This document shows, piece by piece, positions 4,801 to 38,779 of a DNA stretch of 64,000 bases. The first letter of the stretch is position 1. Each line of letters begins with the position of its first letter. The position numbers were made by a program, and so were the translations under genes. This DNA comes from Candidatus Moraniibacteriota bacterium (GTDB taxonomy: Bacteria > Patescibacteriota > Minisyncoccia > Moranbacterales > UBA1568): positions 185-64,184 of the forward strand of contig JBATNG010000009.1 of assembly GCA_049290235.1 (NCBI GenBank), read 5' to 3'. The notes under the pieces are model-generated. The model saw only the letters and a program-made list of their open reading frames with translations. It did no database searches and was not told the origin of the DNA.

Positions 4801-7800
4801 GTGTGGGGAGCGGAGATGACTGGATCGATTGAACGGCGTATGCAACGGAACGGAAGAGAGAAAATTTTTCACGATCAGCGAGGGATTCGGAAGCGCTATG
4901 TCGTTTCGGCAGTTTCCCTGTTCGGTTGCTTGATAGTCGGGGTGTTCAGTGTGACCGCCGTGAGCATCCTCAGGACGCCCGCCCTGCCTCCGTTGCCAGT
5001 CTCTTCAGGGGTATCCGCCGAGAGTACGGTTTCCGAGACCGTTCCCCAACCGGTTTCCCTGGTTACCCCGCCGATAGCGGCCTGGCAGCGACTCCTCACC
5101 ACCTCCACGGTAGAGCGGAATCCGGCTCAATTGTCGGAAGTGTTTGGTTTCTTCGTCAACTGGGATGACGATAGTCTCGCTTCCCTGAAGGCACATGCGG
5201 CGGTGCTGGACGGTCTCATCCCGGAATGGCTCCACCTCGCGAGCGGGACCGGGGAGGTAGTCTTGGATGATCCGGCCCGGGCACAAGAGACCCGCGAGTT
5301 CCTCGAAGCCCAAGACTATGCCCTCCCGATCTATCCATTGATCAATAATTACAATCCTCGGACTGACGGTTGGGATAGCGAGAGTCTGGTCGCGATGCTG
5401 TCTTCTCCCGACGCTCGCCACACCTTGATCGCCACACTCCTCGATTATGCCACCGCTCAGCATGCCGCCGGCATCACGATCGACTTCGAGGCGGTCCCGG
5501 ATACGAGTCAGGCGGCCCTCGTACTCTTCATGGGGGAACTGTCATCAGCATTCCACGAGAAAGACTTGAAGGTCATGCTGTGTCTCCCACTCGTCGATGA
5601 TTCATTCGATATCGCGACTTTGGCAGAGGCGAGTGACCACCTCATCCTCATGGCCTATGACGAGCATGTCCCGAGTGATTCCGTTGCCGGGCCGATTGCC
5701 TCGATGGGGTGGTATGTGAACGGGATCGCTGAACGTTTTCGTACCCTCTCGCCCGAAAAATATATCGTTGCTCTCGGGAATTACGGTTATGATTGGCCTG
5801 CTGACGGATCACCCGGCCGATCGTTGACGTTCCAGGAAGCCGTGCGTATCGCCGACAGAGCGAACCGTGCCGTGACTCTGGAGTCCGCCTCGCTCAATTC
5901 CACTTTTTCTTATTCAGGTGAATCGGGGATCGCTCATCAGGTCTGGATGCTGGATGCACTCTCAGTATTCAATCAGGTGACTAGCGCCGAAAAACTCGGC
6001 GGGACAGGGCGCTATGCCTTGTGGCGGCTCGGTTCGGAGGATCCGACGCTCTGGAATCTCTTCCAGCGTCCTCAGGTGCGAGGTCGGGCCGCGGCTGAGA
6101 AACTCAAGACGATACGCTTCAGCTATGAAGTCAGCCATGAAGGAGCTGGAGAAATCCTCCAATTGGCCGAGGCACCTCGGGCAGGGAGCCGGGATATCAC
6201 ATACGATGAGGCGACCGGACTGGTGATCGCCGAGAGCCTGACTGACTTCCCTCGCCCCTATGTCTTGAAGCGCTGGGGTGGCAATGACTCGAAGAAAATC
6301 GCGCTCACGTTCGATGATGGTCCGGACGCGACGTACACGCCAGAGATATTGGAAATCTTGAAACAGTATGATGTCCCAGCAACGTTTTTTGTCGTCGGGT
6401 TGAATGCGAGTCTGAACCCGGAGATTCTGAAAACCATCCTCCGCCAGGGGAGTGAGATCGGCAATCACACCTACACCCACCCGGACATCTCGGTCATAAC
6501 ACAAAAGCAGTTCCGTCTCGAGCTCGATACCACCGAGCGCGTCATCGAAGGGGTACTCGGGAGGAAAGCACTCCTCTTCCGGCCTCCTTACATCGAGGAT
6601 ACGGAGCCCGAGAACGCCGAAGAAGTCGGTCCGCTCATCCTCACGCATGATCTCGGATACTACACGGTCGGTTTGCATATCGATTCGAACGATTGGAGAC
6701 AACCGAGGGCGCGGATGATCGCTGATAGTGTGTTGGATCAGGCTCGGGCGGGAGCGGGTAATATCGTACTCTTGCACGATGCGGGCGGCCGGCGCGAGCA
6801 AACTGTCGCGGCACTGCCGCTCATCATCGAAGGACTGCAGGCCGATGGATTCGAAATAGTCCGGGTTTCAGAGCTGATGGGGCTCACTTCGGCGGAAGTC
6901 ATGCCACTGGTGACAGCTGATGAGAGGGCGATGTCTCATATCAATGGGCTCACTTTCCATTTCGTGAGCGCTTTCAATGTCTTCATGCGAATGATGTTTG
7001 GCATCGGGATCATTTTGGGGATCGGACGGTTTTTGATTCTCGGGTCACTTGGGTTCGGGAACACATTGAGAGCCCGTTTCATACGGAGAAGGCTTGAACG
7101 GCGTGAACAGCAGTATCATCCGACAGTGGGAGTTATTATCCCGGCGCACAATGAAGCCGGAGTGATCGTCCGGACGGTCCGTGCTGTCCTCGCTTCGGAT
7201 TACCCAGTCTCGAAGGTGATCGTCATCGATGACGGATCGACAGATCAGACCGTCGCAGTCATCCGCGCGCACTTTCCAGATGATTCCGAAATCAGCGTCA
7301 TTTCGCAGGTACATGGTGGCAAGTCGGCCGCTCTGAATCGAGGAATAGCAGAAACGACCGCTGAGATCATCGTGACTCTGGATGCGGATACACTCTTTCT
7401 CCCCGATACGATCCAGAAGCTCGTCCGGCACTTCGCTGACCGGACGGTGGGAGGGGTGTCAGGCAATACGAAAGTCGGCAACCGTCTCAATCTCCTGACA
7501 CGCTGGCAGGCGCTCGAGTATGTCACGAGCCAGAACCTGGATCGTCGCGCCTTCGAAGTGCTGAACTGCATCCCGGTGATTTCTGGCGCCGTGGGGGCAT
7601 GGCGTCGATCGGTGCTTCTCGAAACGGGGGGATTCTCGAGTGACACTTTGGCCGAAGACGCTGATGCAACGTGGAGTCTCTTGCGTTTGGGCTACCGAGT
7701 CGTGTATGAGGAGGAAGCCATGGCCTATACGGAGGCGCCCGCGACCGTACGAACCTTCATCAAGCAGCGTTTCCGTTGGGCGTACGGCACCTTTCAGACG

Positions 7801-8235
7801 GCTTGGAAACATAAGGGAGCTTTTTTCTCTGGCCCAGCGAGTGTCGGGTGGGTGGCTTTGCCGAACGTTTTCATCTTTCAAATCCTTTTTCCTCTCGTCG
7901 CCCCGATCATGGATGCGCTCTTCATCAGTTCCCTGGCGTGGTATGGCTGGCAGCAGTGGCAGCATCCGCTCACACTCCCCAGTTCTCAGGGGTTCCCCGA
8001 AGTTTTCGGTTATTATCTCTTGTTCCTGGCGATTGATTTCTTGACCGCACTCATTCCTTTTCTCTGGGAGCGTCAAGAGAGACTCAGTCTCCTCCTCTGG
8101 CTCCCGCTGCAACGATTCTCCTATCGGCAGCTCCTCTATTACGTGACCTTCAAGGCCCTGTGGGCAGCCGCCAAGGGCACTCTGACGTACTGGGGGAGGA
8201 CGGAGCGCAAAGCGACAGTAGAAGTAGGTTCCTAG
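4801..8235 (+). CDS. Tri-domain membrane protein: GH-like (beta/alpha)8 domain + CE4 polysaccharide deacetylase (NodB homology) + processive family-2 glycosyltransferase (NodC/chitin-synthase/PgaC-like)
   Basis: N-terminal TM helix. Then GITIDFE and GNYGYDW motifs reminiscent of GH18-type barrels. NodB motifs TFDDGPDATYTPEILEILKQYDVPATFFVVG ... HTYTHPD. Second hydrophobic segment (GIGIILGIGRFLILG). GT2 motifs VIIPAHNEAGVI...VIVIDDGSTDQT, LDADT, QRFRWAYG (QxxRW) and a C-terminal TM bundle. Confidence 0.75.
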   Translation: MWGAEMTGSIERRMQRNGREKIFHDQRGIRKRYVVSAVSLFGCLIVGVFSVTAVSILRTPALPPLPVSSGVSAESTVSETVPQPVSLVTPPIAAWQRLLTTSTVERNPAQLSEVFGFFVNWDDDSLASLKAHAAVLDGLIPEWLHLASGTGEVVLDDPARAQETREFLEAQDYALPIYPLINNYNPRTDGWDSESLVAMLSSPDARHTLIATLLDYATAQHAAGITIDFEAVPDTSQAALVLFMGELSSAFHEKDLKVMLCLPLVDDSFDIATLAEASDHLILMAYDEHVPSDSVAGPIASMGWYVNGIAERFRTLSPEKYIVALGNYGYDWPADGSPGRSLTFQEAVRIADRANRAVTLESASLNSTFSYSGESGIAHQVWMLDALSVFNQVTSAEKLGGTGRYALWRLGSEDPTLWNLFQRPQVRGRAAAEKLKTIRFSYEVSHEGAGEILQLAEAPRAGSRDITYDEATGLVIAESLTDFPRPYVLKRWGGNDSKKIALTFDDGPDATYTPEILEILKQYDVPATFFVVGLNASLNPEILKTILRQGSEIGNHTYTHPDISVITQKQFRLELDTTERVIEGVLGRKALLFRPPYIEDTEPENAEEVGPLILTHDLGYYTVGLHIDSNDWRQPRARMIADSVLDQARAGAGNIVLLHDAGGRREQTVAALPLIIEGLQADGFEIVRVSELMGLTSAEVMPLVTADERAMSHINGLTFHFVSAFNVFMRMMFGIGIILGIGRFLILGSLGFGNTLRARFIRRRLERREQQYHPTVGVIIPAHNEAGVIVRTVRAVLASDYPVSKVIVIDDGSTDQTVAVIRAHFPDDSEISVISQVHGGKSAALNRGIAETTAEIIVTLDADTLFLPDTIQKLVRHFADRTVGGVSGNTKVGNRLNLLTRWQALEYVTSQNLDRRAFEVLNCIPVISGAVGAWRRSVLLETGGFSSDTLAEDADATWSLLRLGYRVVYEEEAMAYTEAPATVRTFIKQRFRWAYGTFQTAWKHKGAFFSGPASVGWVALPNVFIFQILFPLVAPIMDALFISSLAWYGWQQWQHPLTLPSSQGFPEVFGYYLLFLAIDFLTALIPFLWERQERLSLLLWLPLQRFSYRQLLYYVTFKALWAAAKGTLTYWGRTERKATVEVGS

Positions 8236-19103: not shown

Positions 19104-19787
19104 ATGGATAAGAGACAACACGAAGCGCTGCTCAAGACGCTTGAAGACACCGGACAGCTTGAGGAATACAAGAAGTCATACGACAACTACTCGGTTGGCA
19201 TTGTACCGGAGATCCTCGGAACCATCCTCGTCACTTGTGGCAATCTGGTCTATGGCCACACGCCGTCGTACGGCAAGTTCAAGGCGGTCGAAGTGATCGC
19301 CCGCATCCCATACCAGTCCTGGGAGGTGGCGAGCTATACGCTCCTCACCATGTTCTACTCGAACGAGCAAAAGGCGATTGATCTCTCCAAAGTCTCGCGT
19401 TTCAGCCGGATCTCTCAGGACAATGAGACGATGCACGTCGTGGTCCTGTCGCAACTGGCGAGGAAGTATGGCGAGGACGGTCTCATCCGGCACACGCTCA
19501 TCCCGCTCCTCTTTTCTTTCGGGTATGCCGTCGCTTCGTTTGTCCTCTATCTCTTTAGCCCCAAAAGCTCGCTTCAGCTGAACTATCTCTTTGAAGACCA
19601 CGCGTTCTCGCAGTACTCGATCTTCGTCGAGAAACATGCCGAAGAGCTGAAAACGAAGCCGGTCATGATCGACTTCCTCGAGTTCTACGGCCGGCACGTG
19701 AAAAGCGAGTACGAACTCTTTGTCTCGATCAAGAACGACGAGATCATCCACCGCAATATGTCGGCGCATCGGGCGGATGAGCTCTAG
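19104..19787 (+). CDS. Alternative-oxidase-like di-iron carboxylate protein
   Basis: Four-helix-bundle ligand pattern: EVIARIP (LETVA-like), NETMH (ExxH, cf. NERMHL), EDHAF (cf. LEEEAIH), NDEIIH (ExxH, cf. RADEAHH). Length 227 aa matches the AOX core. Confidence 0.5.
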   Translation: MDKRQHEALLKTLEDTGQLEEYKKSYDNYSVGIVPEILGTILVTCGNLVYGHTPSYGKFKAVEVIARIPYQSWEVASYTLLTMFYSNEQKAIDLSKVSRFSRISQDNETMHVVVLSQLARKYGEDGLIRHTLIPLLFSFGYAVASFVLYLFSPKSSLQLNYLFEDHAFSQYSIFVEKHAEELKTKPVMIDFLEFYGRHVKSEYELFVSIKNDEIIHRNMSAHRADEL

Positions 19788-34426: not shown

Positions 34427-35398
34427 CTACGCGACGTGCCAGCCGGCAGTCGACTCAACGATCTTTCCTTTCAATTCAAACCCACTGGCGAGTTTATGAC
34501 CGCCGCCGCCGAGGGTGTGGGCGATCGCTGAGACATCGACGCCGTGGTGTTCCGAGGCGCGCAGGCTGCCACGGACGGTCGACTCATCACGTTCCGAAAG
34601 GACGAGCGCAAAACGGGCTTCTGGTACCGTGGAGAGAATTGAAGCGACTTGGTAGACATCATCCGATGTTGCTTCGCATTCGTTGATATCAGAACGCGTG
34701 ACCGCAGTGACGAGCAGTCCTGACTCAGGAATAAACTTTGCCTTCTCAAACGCGATGCCCCAGAGTTTCATCGCCGAAATGTTTTTATTGGCAAAAATCG
34801 TGTTGGAAATTTTTGTTAGCGGCGCACCAAGTTTCATGAGATGCGAGGCGATATCCATTACCTGTGGCGATACAGAGGAGTGCTGGAAATTGCCAGTATC
34901 AAAAAGGATGCCAGTGAGGAGCGCGGTGGCCATCTCTTTGGTGATGTGGGCCTGAGTATGCATGAAGAACAAATATACGAGCTCGCTTGACGACGAATAC
35001 TTCGGATCGATCATGACGATGTCTGCCGTGAGGTCGATATCGGGATGGTGGTCGATAAGGACGGTGACCTGGCGCTCTTCGAGACGATCGCACAACAAGT
35101 GGAACCCACGGTCGACACTATCCGCTGCGACGATCACATCAAACGATACGAGGTCAAGCTGATCGGGATGAAAGAAATCAGCATGAAACAGCGAATTCAA
35201 ATTGTCAGGAAAGGGATCATAGCAAGCGATTGAGACCTGCTTCCCCTGCCCTTCCAAATAGTATTTCAAAGCGAGATTGGCACCGACAGTATCGGGGTCG
35301 GGTCGTTTATGGGCAACGAGCAAAATCTTCTCCGCTCGCTCAAAGACAAAGCGCAGAGATTTAAATTCTTTCCCGAAATAGCGCATAGAGTTGATCAA
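34427..35398 (-). CDS. nrnA: DHH-family phosphoesterase (NrnA-like bifunctional oligoribonuclease/pAp phosphatase)
   Basis: DHH motifs HKRPDPDTVGA ... IDHHPD. DHHA1 C-terminal GGGGH motif (HTLGGGGHKLASG). 323 aa. Confidence 0.85.
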   Translation of the reverse strand: MINSMRYFGKEFKSLRFVFERAEKILLVAHKRPDPDTVGANLALKYYLEGQGKQVSIACYDPFPDNLNSLFHADFFHPDQLDLVSFDVIVAADSVDRGFHLLCDRLEERQVTVLIDHHPDIDLTADIVMIDPKYSSSSELVYLFFMHTQAHITKEMATALLTGILFDTGNFQHSSVSPQVMDIASHLMKLGAPLTKISNTIFANKNISAMKLWGIAFEKAKFIPESGLLVTAVTRSDINECEATSDDVYQVASILSTVPEARFALVLSERDESTVRGSLRASEHHGVDVSAIAHTLGGGGHKLASGFELKGKIVESTAGWHVA

Positions 35399-35739
35399 GA
35401 ATGTGTATCTTGAATGGATTTGAGTAATCGTTCGACCTCGTCGGCCTTTTCCTCAGTTGTGTCTAACTCAAAAACGAGTTTCGGTAGTGGGCGGGTTGAA
35501 AGCTTCTGATGAAAAAGCCATTCGACTCGGCGATGTTCGTGCTGAAGGGTTTTCATGACGTAGTGACGATCATCAGGGGGCAGAACACTGAGCGACACAT
35601 GAGTTGAACGAAGATTCCGTGCGGTATCGACTTTTGCAATTGTGACAATGACACCAGTTTTCAGCGAAACTTCACGTGTCAAAATTAATCCGAGGATATC
35701 TCGAATCAGATCGTTCAGTTGAGTAATTCTATCGTGCAT
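35395..35739 (-). CDS. rbfA: Ribosome-binding factor A
   Basis: KH-like RbfA sequence (RITQLNDLIRDILGLIL...VSLKTGVIVTIAKVDTARNLRSTHVSLSVL). 114 aa. Overlaps the nrnA start by 4 nt. Confidence 0.85.
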   Translation of the reverse strand: MHDRITQLNDLIRDILGLILTREVSLKTGVIVTIAKVDTARNLRSTHVSLSVLPPDDRHYVMKTLQHEHRRVEWLFHQKLSTRPLPKLVFELDTTEEKADEVERLLKSIQDTHS

Positions 35740-36059: not shown

Positions 36060-37457
36060 ATGACGCTAGCTGTACGAATAGTCAATGTACGCTATACTGT
36101 AGGGCTAAATATGGGACTATCCTGGCTTACATTCAAGAATTTCGAACAAGTACTGATATACGCGTATATCTGGCAGATTCCGTTTTCTTGGCGCCATATA
36201 TTTGATCCGAGCCGAAGCCAGATTAGCCCTAGTTTTAACGAATATATGGATATATCTCTCTATGTTGGAGAGGTAATCCTATTTATTGCACTTATTATAC
36301 ACATAACATACAACAAAAAAATAGTAACGTCAATACTTAATAGTATTCATAAAACTTATAACACAAAACAGATACATTGGTTGTTCCACGTGGAACAGAA
36401 AATTTTAATTCTTGTACTCATACCATTTTTTATACTTCATCTGTTAAGTTCGATTGATATGCTTCTTTCATTAGTTACTTTGTTACGTGTCTGTTTTTTT
36501 ATCATATTCATATATTTGATTCATTCTGAATATGTTTCACGTGGAACAAAGTTTCTGAACGATCTATTTATAATTTTCGTGATAAGTTTGATTATTCAGT
36601 TGATTATATCGTTCGGGCAAGTTGTAACCGGTTCATCTTTGGGGTTGTACTTCATGAATGAATCAGTTCTATCTCTAAACTTGAGCAATATCGCCAAGTC
36701 TCATCTGCTGAACTATGAATTACTGCGTGGTTATGGAACATTTCCACACCCAAATGTTCTGGCAGCATATGCAGTATTTGTTCTGGTTTATGCATACTCA
36801 TTTCGAGATATATTGTTCCACGTGAAACATAATCTAAAATTCCTGATCCCGATAGTAGCTTTCGTTGTATTGCTTACACAGTCGAAACTATTCATACTTT
36901 TCTTGCTTTGCATGCTGCTCATCATTTCATCAAAAGCAACTCAAATGTTCCACGTGAAACATCTATTTCGTATATTGATACTGATACTCGTGACATTTAG
37001 TATATATTTTGTATTTCATAGAGACTTGCTGACCACAGCAAGTACGCGTGTAAATCAGGCGGAAATTCAGATTCAGCAGTACAGATCTCAATTGTTCGGA
37101 ACCGGAATTGGAACTTATCGCCTGAGTTATGACACGCTTCAAGTAAATTGGTGGAATATGGAGCCGATCCATTTCGTACCGTATATTGTACTATCAGAAT
37201 TAGGACTAGGATTTTCAATATTTCTTATCTACTGTGCCTATAAATATATTAAAAATGTTCCACGTGAAACATGGGGGATAATTCAGTACTTCACTGTATT
37301 TCTCTCCTTTATGTTAGGTGTCGATCATTATACCTGGGATATCTATCAAGGTACTTTTCTTTTAGCTACAACTATCTGGATGATATTGACACTTGACAAT
37401 ACTATCAATATTATGCAAAGTAATGTAATTAGTCAACTAATAGAAAAGACTGGTTAA
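36060..37457 (+). CDS. O-antigen ligase / Wzy-type polysaccharide polymerase family membrane protein (low-GC gene)
   Basis: ~10-12 predicted TM helices. YGTFPHPNVLAAYAVF motif resembles the Wzy_C/O-antigen-ligase signature (G..H.HN..L). A 465-codon uninterrupted ORF in ~25-35% GC DNA is strong coding evidence. Confidence 0.6.
   Translation: MTLAVRIVNVRYTVGLNMGLSWLTFKNFEQVLIYAYIWQIPFSWRHIFDPSRSQISPSFNEYMDISLYVGEVILFIALIIHITYNKKIVTSILNSIHKTYNTKQIHWLFHVEQKILILVLIPFFILHLLSSIDMLLSLVTLLRVCFFIIFIYLIHSEYVSRGTKFLNDLFIIFVISLIIQLIISFGQVVTGSSLGLYFMNESVLSLNLSNIAKSHLLNYELLRGYGTFPHPNVLAAYAVFVLVYAYSFRDILFHVKHNLKFLIPIVAFVVLLTQSKLFILFLLCMLLIISSKATQMFHVKHLFRILILILVTFSIYFVFHRDLLTTASTRVNQAEIQIQQYRSQLFGTGIGTYRLSYDTLQVNWWNMEPIHFVPYIVLSELGLGFSIFLIYCAYKYIKNVPRETWGIIQYFTVFLSFMLGVDHYTWDIYQGTFLLATTIWMILTLDNTINIMQSNVISQLIEKTG
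36382..37272. repeat. Five copies of an 18-bp palindromic element ATGTTCCACGTGAAACAT (core GTTCCACGTGGAAC) dispersed inside the O-antigen-ligase-like CDS
   Basis: Copies centred at ~36390 (TTGTTCCACGTGGAACAG), ~36540 (TATGTTTCACGTGGAACAAA, opposite orientation), ~36820 (TTGTTCCACGTGAAACAT), ~36954 (ATGTTCCACGTGAAACAT) and ~37264 (ATGTTCCACGTGAAACAT). They fall in different reading frames (FHVKH / FHVEQ / VPRET / VSRGT), so the repeat is at DNA level. Each unit is 18 bp, i.e. 6 codons. Confidence 0.8.
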
Positions 37458-37792: not shown

Positions 37793-38779
37793 TTGCATAT
37801 GGGTGTATCACAAACAAAAAACAATTTGCGTTGGAGCATTTTTGTATTCGCTTTTTTGTGTCTCGCGAGTTCGGCGCTGTATGTCGTGGCTGATGAAGTT
37901 TCAACCACGGATGTTGTTGCGTTTAATGATGCCGATACGGATGGATTATCGAATGAAGAGGAAAAGATTTACGGCACCGATGTGGATGTCGCTGATACGG
38001 ATGGTGATGGCTATAGTGATGGTGTGGAAATAGAAGGAGGATTCGACCCATTGAAACCTGCTCCTGGGGATCGGATTGTACAAGAAGAGGTGACGACAAT
38101 TGTACAGTCAGCGGAACTTCAATCGAGCAATCTCACATCGAAGGCAAAAGACGAGTTTGCTGCGCTCCTAGAAACGAAAGGAGAGAATACTGAAATCACA
38201 AACGAGGATTTCACATCTGTGTTAAATACAGTGATGGCGACGAGTCAAAAAGAGATAGAGTTGCCTGAAGTTGATAGTTCATCGATTAAAGTTAAAAAAA
38301 TTGCTGCGAATCTCTCTGATGAGGAGAGGACACAGCAGAGTAGAGAAGATACAATAGAGTATCTTACGCTTGCTGCATACATCCTTTTGTCGAATATACC
38401 AACTCCGGTCAAAGACGAATTTCAATTTGAGAATTTTATCGCTGCTTCAAGTAGCGCGATGATGGCGAGTTTGGTTTCTGGGGATTTTAGTTTTCTTGAT
38501 GAATCTGAGAGACGAGCCAAGAGCGCGCTCGATGAAATCAATCAGTTAGAAGTCCCTGAGAACATGGTCAACACTCACATGAAGGCGATTCAGTTGCTTG
38601 CGTATATCTCGAATATGAAGCAGAGTGTTCAGAGTTCTGTATCGCCTGAGGATCCGCTGGCACAGATGATGGCGTTTTCAAAAATCATCGGTGTGGTTGT
38701 TTCCTTACAGAGCTACATGCAAGACACCGAGACAATGCTTACCCAATATGGTATTCAAGGGATATCACTTGATTTATAG
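37793..38779 (+). CDS. Secreted/membrane-anchored protein with thrombospondin-type-3-like Ca-binding Asp repeats, hypothetical
   Basis: Signal/anchor WSIFVFAFLCLASSALYVVA. DADTDGLSNEEE ... DVADTDGDGYSDGVE repeats. Acidic helical remainder. Confidence 0.5.
   Translation: MHMGVSQTKNNLRWSIFVFAFLCLASSALYVVADEVSTTDVVAFNDADTDGLSNEEEKIYGTDVDVADTDGDGYSDGVEIEGGFDPLKPAPGDRIVQEEVTTIVQSAELQSSNLTSKAKDEFAALLETKGENTEITNEDFTSVLNTVMATSQKEIELPEVDSSSIKVKKIAANLSDEERTQQSREDTIEYLTLAAYILLSNIPTPVKDEFQFENFIAASSSAMMASLVSGDFSFLDESERRAKSALDEINQLEVPENMVNTHMKAIQLLAYISNMKQSVQSSVSPEDPLAQMMAFSKIIGVVVSLQSYMQDTETMLTQYGIQGISLDL

Follow-up and report, generated by a model that had tools for sequence, protein, structure and literature searches.

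Putative chromosomal parS sites arrayed in the predicted cytoplasmic-loop codons of a WaaL-like membrane-protein gene of Moraniibacteriota

Introduction

A contig of Candidatus Moraniibacteriota bacterium (GenBank assembly GCA_049290235.1, contig JBATNG010000009.1, positions 185 to 64,184; these 64,000 nucleotides are hereafter the window) contains a gene for an O-antigen-ligase-like membrane protein, the host gene, in which five near-identical short palindromes are translated as part of the protein. This raises the question of what the palindromes are and which constraint keeps them inside an open reading frame (ORF). An original prediction, made from the DNA letters, considered frame-neutral inserted mini-elements, clustered binding sites for a protein, restriction or methylation motifs and recombination hotspots. 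Here, we present a computational analysis supporting a model according to which the five palindromes are chromosomal parS sites, i.e. the recognition sequence of ParB (Spo0J), a reading to which we assign a probability of roughly 0.88 and in which binding by ParB is deduced from the sequence.

Results

Five palindromes in one gene match the ParB recognition sequence

The 18-bp pattern ATGTTCCACGTGAAACAT has five matches with 0-3 mismatches (36381-36398, 36532-36549, 36813-36830, 36945-36962 and 37255-37272), and dinucleotide-preserving shuffles yielded a mean of 0.03 matches and never reached the observed count. As there are none elsewhere in the 64 kb, the original prediction of five near-identical palindromes with a CACGTG core, found only in one coding sequence, is borne out. 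The palindrome it described as an 18-bp unit is likewise real, but the conserved unit comprises 16 bp (TGTTNCACGTGNAACA) and the flanking positions merely prefer A or T (89-96% W). The 16-mer TGTTYCACGTGRAACA is matched exactly by 5/5 sites, at the starts listed in Table 1, with zero further copies in the rest of the window, and each of the five contains an exact copy of the 14-mer core GTTYCACGTGRAAC, for which the remainder of the window gives no match even if two mismatches are allowed. All five sites lie within 890 bp of a single ORF, corresponding to one site per 130-310 bp. Half-parS heptamers show no visible clustering or enrichment in the window, the 20 copies outside the full sites being scattered over the 64 kb.

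As 16-bp inverted repeats, all five sites fit the consensus TGTTNCACGTGAAACA, and in a full-text literature search with the core strings nearly all returned papers concern ParB/parS. The chromosomal centromere-like site is given as 'mainly TGTTNCACGTGAAACA', with the variant TGTTCCACGTGGAACA in Pseudomonas putida and TGTTCCACGTGGAACG in Myxococcus xanthus (PMC7022226). The idea of clustered binding sites for a CACGTG-recognising protein was therefore essentially correct, the sequence being that of the ParB site parS. Because this canonical ParB site is perfectly conserved, we infer that another part of the genome codes for a canonical ParB binding the sites, and the array would then be a candidate for the main centromere of the chromosome.

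The sites are read in two codon phases, xTG TTC CAC GTG RAA CAx at sites 1, 3 and 4 and xxT GTT YCA CGT GRA ACA at sites 2 and 5, and since these combine with the C/T and G/A variants of the palindrome, four different peptides result. The translations FHVKH, FHVEQ, VPRET and VSRGT had been read correctly; the three reading frames reported with them reduce to two codon phases in the window, the third (CSTWN) being used in relatives.

The sites are under purifying selection at the DNA level

We compared the host gene in a codon alignment of 11 genomes, composed of the window and ten further loci, nine from a species-representative genome collection and one from the closed record CP064975.1, spanning 30-60% amino-acid identity. 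In this alignment, the five parS sites are the top five conserved 16-nt windows of the gene, with values of 0.915-0.972 compared to a gene mean of 0.607, and they are more conserved than the catalytic-type motifs of the host gene. The best-conserved 16-nt window of the entire gene is parS-4 (0.972), followed by a mean identity of 0.955 for parS-3 and of 0.943 for both parS-5 and parS-1, the latter occupying an alignment column shared with the 10 other genomes; the parS-2 codons GTT TCA CGT GGA are identical in 9/10 other genomes. The parS-derived peptides are found in the same alignment columns across 29 relatives (30-60% identity), in which the flanks vary.

For a synonymous test, we used just the window to pick the site columns and restricted the scoring to the ten remaining genomes. 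The core His is encoded by CAC in 29/29 cases at the sites compared to 24/84 elsewhere in the gene, Arg by CGT in 23/24 compared to 12/98, and Phe by TTC in 28/31 compared to 85/345. Moreover, codon periodicity is flat within the sites, the conservation by codon position being 0.89/0.92/0.93. Outside the sites it amounts to 0.64/0.79/0.56, a pattern showing that the host gene is a real protein-coding gene under purifying selection. The fixed synonymous positions together with the flat periodicity place the constraint on the DNA and rule out an explanation at the protein level. Conservation at the DNA level had been proposed originally and is confirmed, with synonymous positions fixed in ten other genomes while the gene drifts; relatives encoding the same peptides with different codons, which would have pointed to a protein-level constraint, were not observed. 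The sites are thus under purifying selection at the DNA level, and with parS residing within an ORF two constraints overlap, i.e. that of a working membrane-protein ORF and that of a putative multi-site centromere.

Each predicted cytoplasmic loop of the host protein holds one site

The host ORF encodes 465 aa from the first ATG at 36060, but in relatives the start is the ATG at 36111. For the window protein, Pfam gives no match at an E-value of 0.01 or better; PF04932 (Wzy_C / O-antigen ligase) is found in the syntenic relatives L014 and L015 and in distant homologues. An AlphaFold model of the host protein, built with 29 relatives, shows 12 long helices (pLDDT 81.7, pTM 0.83), and its sole meaningful match in the PDB is WaaL (7tpg_B; probability 1.00, TM-score 0.49/0.55, with a weak E-value of 0.045). 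The domain in the homologues and the structural match agree with the original label 'O-antigen-ligase-like'. H230 and H371 are invariant and R223 is conserved to at least 90%, distant homologues included. The closest protein matches are named Candidatus Moraniibacteriota or Moranbacteria, i.e. members of the candidate phyla radiation (Patescibacteria).

According to the AlphaFold helix boundaries, each site is positioned at a turn between two transmembrane helices (TM), namely TM2-3, TM4-5, TM6-7, TM8-9 and TM10-11. Over 29 sequences, the loops on the parS side have a net charge of +8.1 and a K+R density of 0.20, whereas those on the opposite side have a net charge of -5.1, a K+R density of 0.07 and bear the conserved R223, H230 and H371 as well as the DHYxWD motifs. 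The topology of WaaL is established, and based on the positive-inside rule and the analogy to WaaL, the parS side is assigned to the cytoplasm. The predicted topology of 12 helices with both ends inside gives exactly five cytoplasmic loops, each of which holds one parS. The peptides imposed by the palindrome, FHV[K/E] and V[S/P]R[G/E]T, are probably tolerated in these short, positively charged loops.

At the parS positions, Wzy_C homologues lacking the sites also have short loops, similar in length and containing unrelated and often basic residues. The alignment of orthologs proposed originally reveals no clean 6-codon insertion at any site, suggesting that the sites were accommodated in pre-existing loops rather than inserted.

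The host gene has a GC content of 0.35 and a GC content at third codon positions (GC3) of 0.34, the genome being at ~53% GC. Comparing ORFs of 150 aa or more in the window and ten related Moraniibacteria loci (L001-L010), we found the host gene to have the lowest GC3 in 11/11 loci (0.22-0.37, the means of the loci being 0.50-0.62). Since synteny is conserved, the AT-richness of the host gene is a stable property and no sign of recent transfer.

The NCBI protein for the host gene (P0001) has 267 aa and covers just the C-terminal 57% of the ORF. Some family members start with MFHVK, i.e. at an ATG provided by a parS site, and parS may in this way mislead the calling of start codons.

The array is confined to the host gene at a syntenic chromosomal position

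We counted parS sites with a threshold of at most one mismatch in 15 loci, i.e. the window, 13 Moraniibacteria loci and one Doudnabacteria locus; for nine of the 13 Moraniibacteria loci the records give another label or none. All 105 of 105 sites reside in the host gene (22.6 kb in sum) and 0 in 289.5 kb of flanks.

The examined Moraniibacteria loci share a syntenic order of metallophosphatase, UDG, DHH, RbfA, host gene and TSP3-repeat protein, which continues with two unknown proteins, FtsH, TilS and an S1-domain protein. For a recombination hotspot, as suggested originally, we found nothing in support, the locus being syntenic and stable. Two conserved neighbours of 294 aa and 358 aa were considered as DNA binders and rejected, as they look like membrane or secreted proteins.

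A Wzy_C gene of Candidatus Doudnabacteria (L011 10001-11470; copy L012) carries three parS sites, with none in the surrounding ±10 kb.

Table 1. Positions of the parS sites, their host genes and flanking genes; coordinates refer to the window unless a related locus is named
Feature	Coordinates	Strand	Description
parS-1	36382..36397	.	TGTTCCACGTGGAACA, perfect palindrome; (L)FHVEQ; predicted TM2-TM3 cytoplasmic loop
parS-2	36533..36548	.	TGTTTCACGTGGAACA; orientation reverse of sites 3-5; (Y)VSRGT; predicted TM4-TM5 turn
parS-3	36814..36829	.	TGTTCCACGTGAAACA; (L)FHVKH; predicted TM6-TM7 loop
parS-4	36946..36961	.	TGTTCCACGTGAAACA; (M)FHVKH; predicted TM8-TM9 loop
parS-5	37256..37271	.	TGTTCCACGTGAAACA; (N)VPRET; predicted TM10-TM11 turn
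Host gene	36060..37457	+	12-helix WaaL/Wzy_C-like (O-antigen-ligase-like) membrane protein, assigned by homologues, AlphaFold model and PDB match
Expanded host gene, L013	130-2061		
Expanded host gene, L014	10001-12055		
Expanded host gene, L015	10001-11995		
rbfA-like neighbour	35395..35739	-	Upstream; synteny with L010, L014 and L015; landmark for the conserved chromosomal location of the array
Secreted protein with TSP3_bac repeats	37793..38779	+	Downstream; follows the host gene in every related locus examined

Relatives carry expanded arrays in intact reading frames

At the orthologous locus, three relatives carry 18 (L013), 18 (L014) and 14 (L015) perfect parS sites in ORFs of 643-684 aa having no internal stop. 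Their sites form five groups located at the same five loop positions, with a spacing of 34-101 bp within a group. Within one genome, the sites share a single variant. Every site in L014 is TGTTCCACGTGGAACA, the C/G variant, and is read in one of three codon phases (FHVEQ, VPRGT, CSTWN), the use of all three being common to genomes with the GG variant. Every site in L015 is TGTTTCACGTGAAACA, the T/A variant, and two phases are used with 8 and 6 sites; the third phase has 0 sites because TGTTTCACGTGAAACA would create a TGA stop in it. As read from these loci, the phase use and the intact ORFs show that selection acts on both the DNA and the protein layer. A tandem duplication as source of the extra sites in L013 was rejected using Tandem Repeats Finder, the spacers being without mutual similarity; only the 16-mers are therefore maintained, and the extra sites are no recent tandem duplicates.

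To determine the breadth of the family, we searched 1.84 billion representative proteins with an index-free profile method, resulting in 8,178 family members, and counted parS-derived peptides in the best 145 of these. Among these 145, at least one peptide is present in 77%, at least three in 68% and at least eight in 27%, with a maximum of 18, and the peptide count correlates with protein length (r = 0.61). All peptide-bearing representatives with an organism name within this set are named Candidatus Moranbacteria or Moraniibacteriota. The expanded arrays suggest that the number of sites is under selection.

Partition genes and the replication origin

The genomic context weighs against the identification of the array as parS. 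Neither the window nor the examined related loci (~±10 kb around the gene, as far as the contigs reach) yielded parA, parB or dnaA in motif scans, tblastn/phmmer and Pfam, and none of 38 window ORFs scanned with Pfam was assigned to partition or replication initiation. Applied to a control set of 120 metagenomic loci with closely spaced parS pairs, the Spo0J, Soj and DnaA probes proved effective, giving ParB or Soj matches in 43/120 loci at E-values of at most 1e-50. The usual neighbours of the parS pairs in this control set are parA and parB, and a WaaL-like ORF is present in 0/120 loci. Since parS pairs usually adjoin parAB, the array inside a WaaL-like gene is atypical. An origin-proximal position is typical for parS. 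All bins of the window show a positive GC skew with no switch in sign, indicating that no origin lies within 36 kb upstream or 27 kb downstream. In the closed record CP064975.1 (GCA_016699425.1; 1,217,328 bp), the host gene is located at 1.041-1.043 Mb.

In the Doudnabacteria locus L011, the parS-bearing gene lies at a negative-to-positive turn of the GC skew coinciding with a flip in gene orientation, which may mark a replication origin.

Further genes of the window

Housekeeping genes in the window include gyrA, ftsH, tilS, argS, infC, smpB and pnp. A protein of 1,144 aa (4801-8235, +) combines glycoside hydrolase 18, polysaccharide deacetylase and family-2 glycosyltransferase domains and, together with the TSP3-repeat protein and the WaaL-like gene, indicates a region rich in envelope/glycan functions. 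An ORF of 227 aa (19104-19787, +) matches the Pfam alternative oxidase family PF01786 with an E-value of 3.6e-7. Genomes of the candidate phyla radiation are usually described as being without respiratory chains, making an alternative oxidase unexpected.

Discussion

Alternative explanations

One alternative is binding of the sites by a non-partition protein, either a Noc/KorB-type ParB paralogue or a transcription factor reading CACGTG, which would regulate the host gene or its neighbours without any role in segregation. The position of the sites inside one gene and away from parAB, the lack of a ParB gene in the window and the related loci and the 0/120 control loci with a WaaL-like ORF all speak for it. 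However, every site in every genome matches the universal parS consensus exactly over 16 bp, and in the sites of known paralogues, e.g. that of Noc, defined positions deviate from parS. Furthermore, 5-18 operators distributed through an ORF would be an unusual regulatory layout, and the expansion in copy number resembles centromere arrays, so that we consider a non-partition binder improbable.

A repeated functional loop peptide whose likeness to parS is coincidental would explain why the peptides are invariant at the same positions in 29 relatives and at structurally equivalent turns. It would not explain why a single 16-mer, read in two phases here and in three in relatives, yields the unrelated peptides FHVK, VSRGT and CSTWN, why synonymous third positions do not follow the AT-rich codon usage of the gene but are fixed, or why homologues without parS have unrelated residues in these loops, leaving this explanation very little room. 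Similarly remote are mobile in-frame mini-elements of the Rickettsia palindromic element (RPE) type inserted into the gene, the reading favoured originally on the grounds that the elements are frame-neutral. While the sites are palindromic, repeated within one ORF and, in the proposed unit, of a length that is a multiple of three, neither the rest of the window nor the 289.5 kb of flanks from related loci contains any copy, the positions are orthologous across genomes sharing 30-60% protein identity and fall into the same columns in 29 relatives, homologues lacking the sites have similar loop lengths and no clean 6-codon gaps, and the spacers of the expanded arrays are mutually dissimilar. A restriction-modification or methylation target kept or tolerated in the gene, also raised originally in view of the 6-bp palindromic core typical of type II recognition sites, is of negligible probability, as CACGTG alone shows no overall avoidance or enrichment in the window (16 copies compared to 13.3 expected, with 27/100 shuffles reaching 16) and conservation spans all 16 bp.

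A model for the array

For the identification of the sites as parS, studies in other bacteria suggest how the array might act. In these bacteria, the clamp mechanism of ParB is established, and the partition complex is moved by ParA and recruits SMC. By analogy, ParB dimers would recognise each 16-mer, load as sliding clamps dependent on cytidine triphosphate and spread, several adjacent sites would raise the rate of clamp loading, and one partition complex would be nucleated within 890 bp of the host gene. The sites can probably live in this gene through the tolerance of the loop codons, and their location would then be inherited with the gene.

A more far-reaching model, which we regard as rather unlikely, holds that Moraniibacteria and some neighbouring Patescibacteria have long conserved the WaaL-like gene as a dedicated 'centromere host gene', in which the overlap is functional and not just tolerated. 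Under this model, co-translational insertion of the nascent 12-helix protein might tether ParB-parS to the membrane in these very small cells, or occupancy by ParB might couple expression of the envelope glycan ligase to the chromosome cycle. If it were true, the AT-richness of the gene and the growth of the loops from 5 to 18 parS would be adaptations of the centromere and not of the enzyme.

Novelty and significance

The parS sequence itself and its occurrence within coding sequences is already well known. Three features appear not to be described in the searchable literature, namely that a whole multi-site array is restricted to one ORF, that the layout of one site per predicted cytoplasmic loop is kept across a family and that the array can grow to 18 sites without loss of the reading frame. 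Our literature searches found no paper treating parS with Patescibacteria or the candidate phyla radiation. The array is a sequence-level candidate for a chromosomal centromere in a lineage of this radiation. It also provides a natural example of overlapping codes, in which a 16-bp protein-binding palindrome remains perfect inside a translated gene only where the protein absorbs the resulting peptides, and in which the copy number shifts through loop expansion while the ORF remains open. As a practical consequence, the peptides (M/L)FHV(K/E)(H/Q), V(S/P)R(G/E)T and CSTWN in predicted proteins can be read as footprints of putative parS sites, and an ATG supplied by parS may give false start codons, so that gene callers can mis-annotate host genes.

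Comparison with known systems

The chromosomal parS of Bacillus subtilis, present as ten sites (TGTTNCACGTGAAACA), is the same 16-bp palindrome in several copies per chromosome. Such sites are often inside coding sequences, one in B. subtilis spo0J being read as VPRET like site 5, and sites of this type occur singly, spread through different genes of a large origin-proximal zone and near parAB. In contrast, all sites seen here are located in one 1.4-kb ORF, one per predicted cytoplasmic loop and at orthologous positions, with no parAB within 27-36 kb of the array, where the window ends.

Multi-site clusters, such as in M. xanthus, resemble the array described here in that several to many parS act together as one centromere region. 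These clusters extend beyond a single gene, covering several to tens of kb around parAB, whereas here one site per 130-310 bp, or per 34-101 bp in the expanded relatives, lies inside an intact ORF. The numbers of parS sites given are 22 for Myxococcus xanthus, 21 for Streptomyces coelicolor, 10 for Corynebacterium glutamicum and 5 for Caulobacter (PMC7022226).

Among metagenome contigs, one with 35% GC (L068, 1044-2027) carries 15 parS in ~1 kb of non-coding DNA ~1.1 kb from dnaA, and another (L121) has 13 parS sites over 14 kb; dense parS arrays thus also exist outside genes in other lineages. Plasmid centromeres such as F sopC consist of tandem repeats of plasmid-specific sequences. Many closely spaced ParB sites are common to these dense non-coding arrays and the array of the host gene, but the former are intergenic while the latter is translated.

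Finally, RPEs share with the sites described here the presence of palindromic DNA in frame within protein-coding genes. RPEs are ~100-150 bp in length, dispersed in many unrelated genes and polymorphic as insertions, whereas the sites of the Moraniibacteriota host gene comprise 16 bp, reside in one gene at positions that are orthologous between genomes and are identical to a known protein-binding site.

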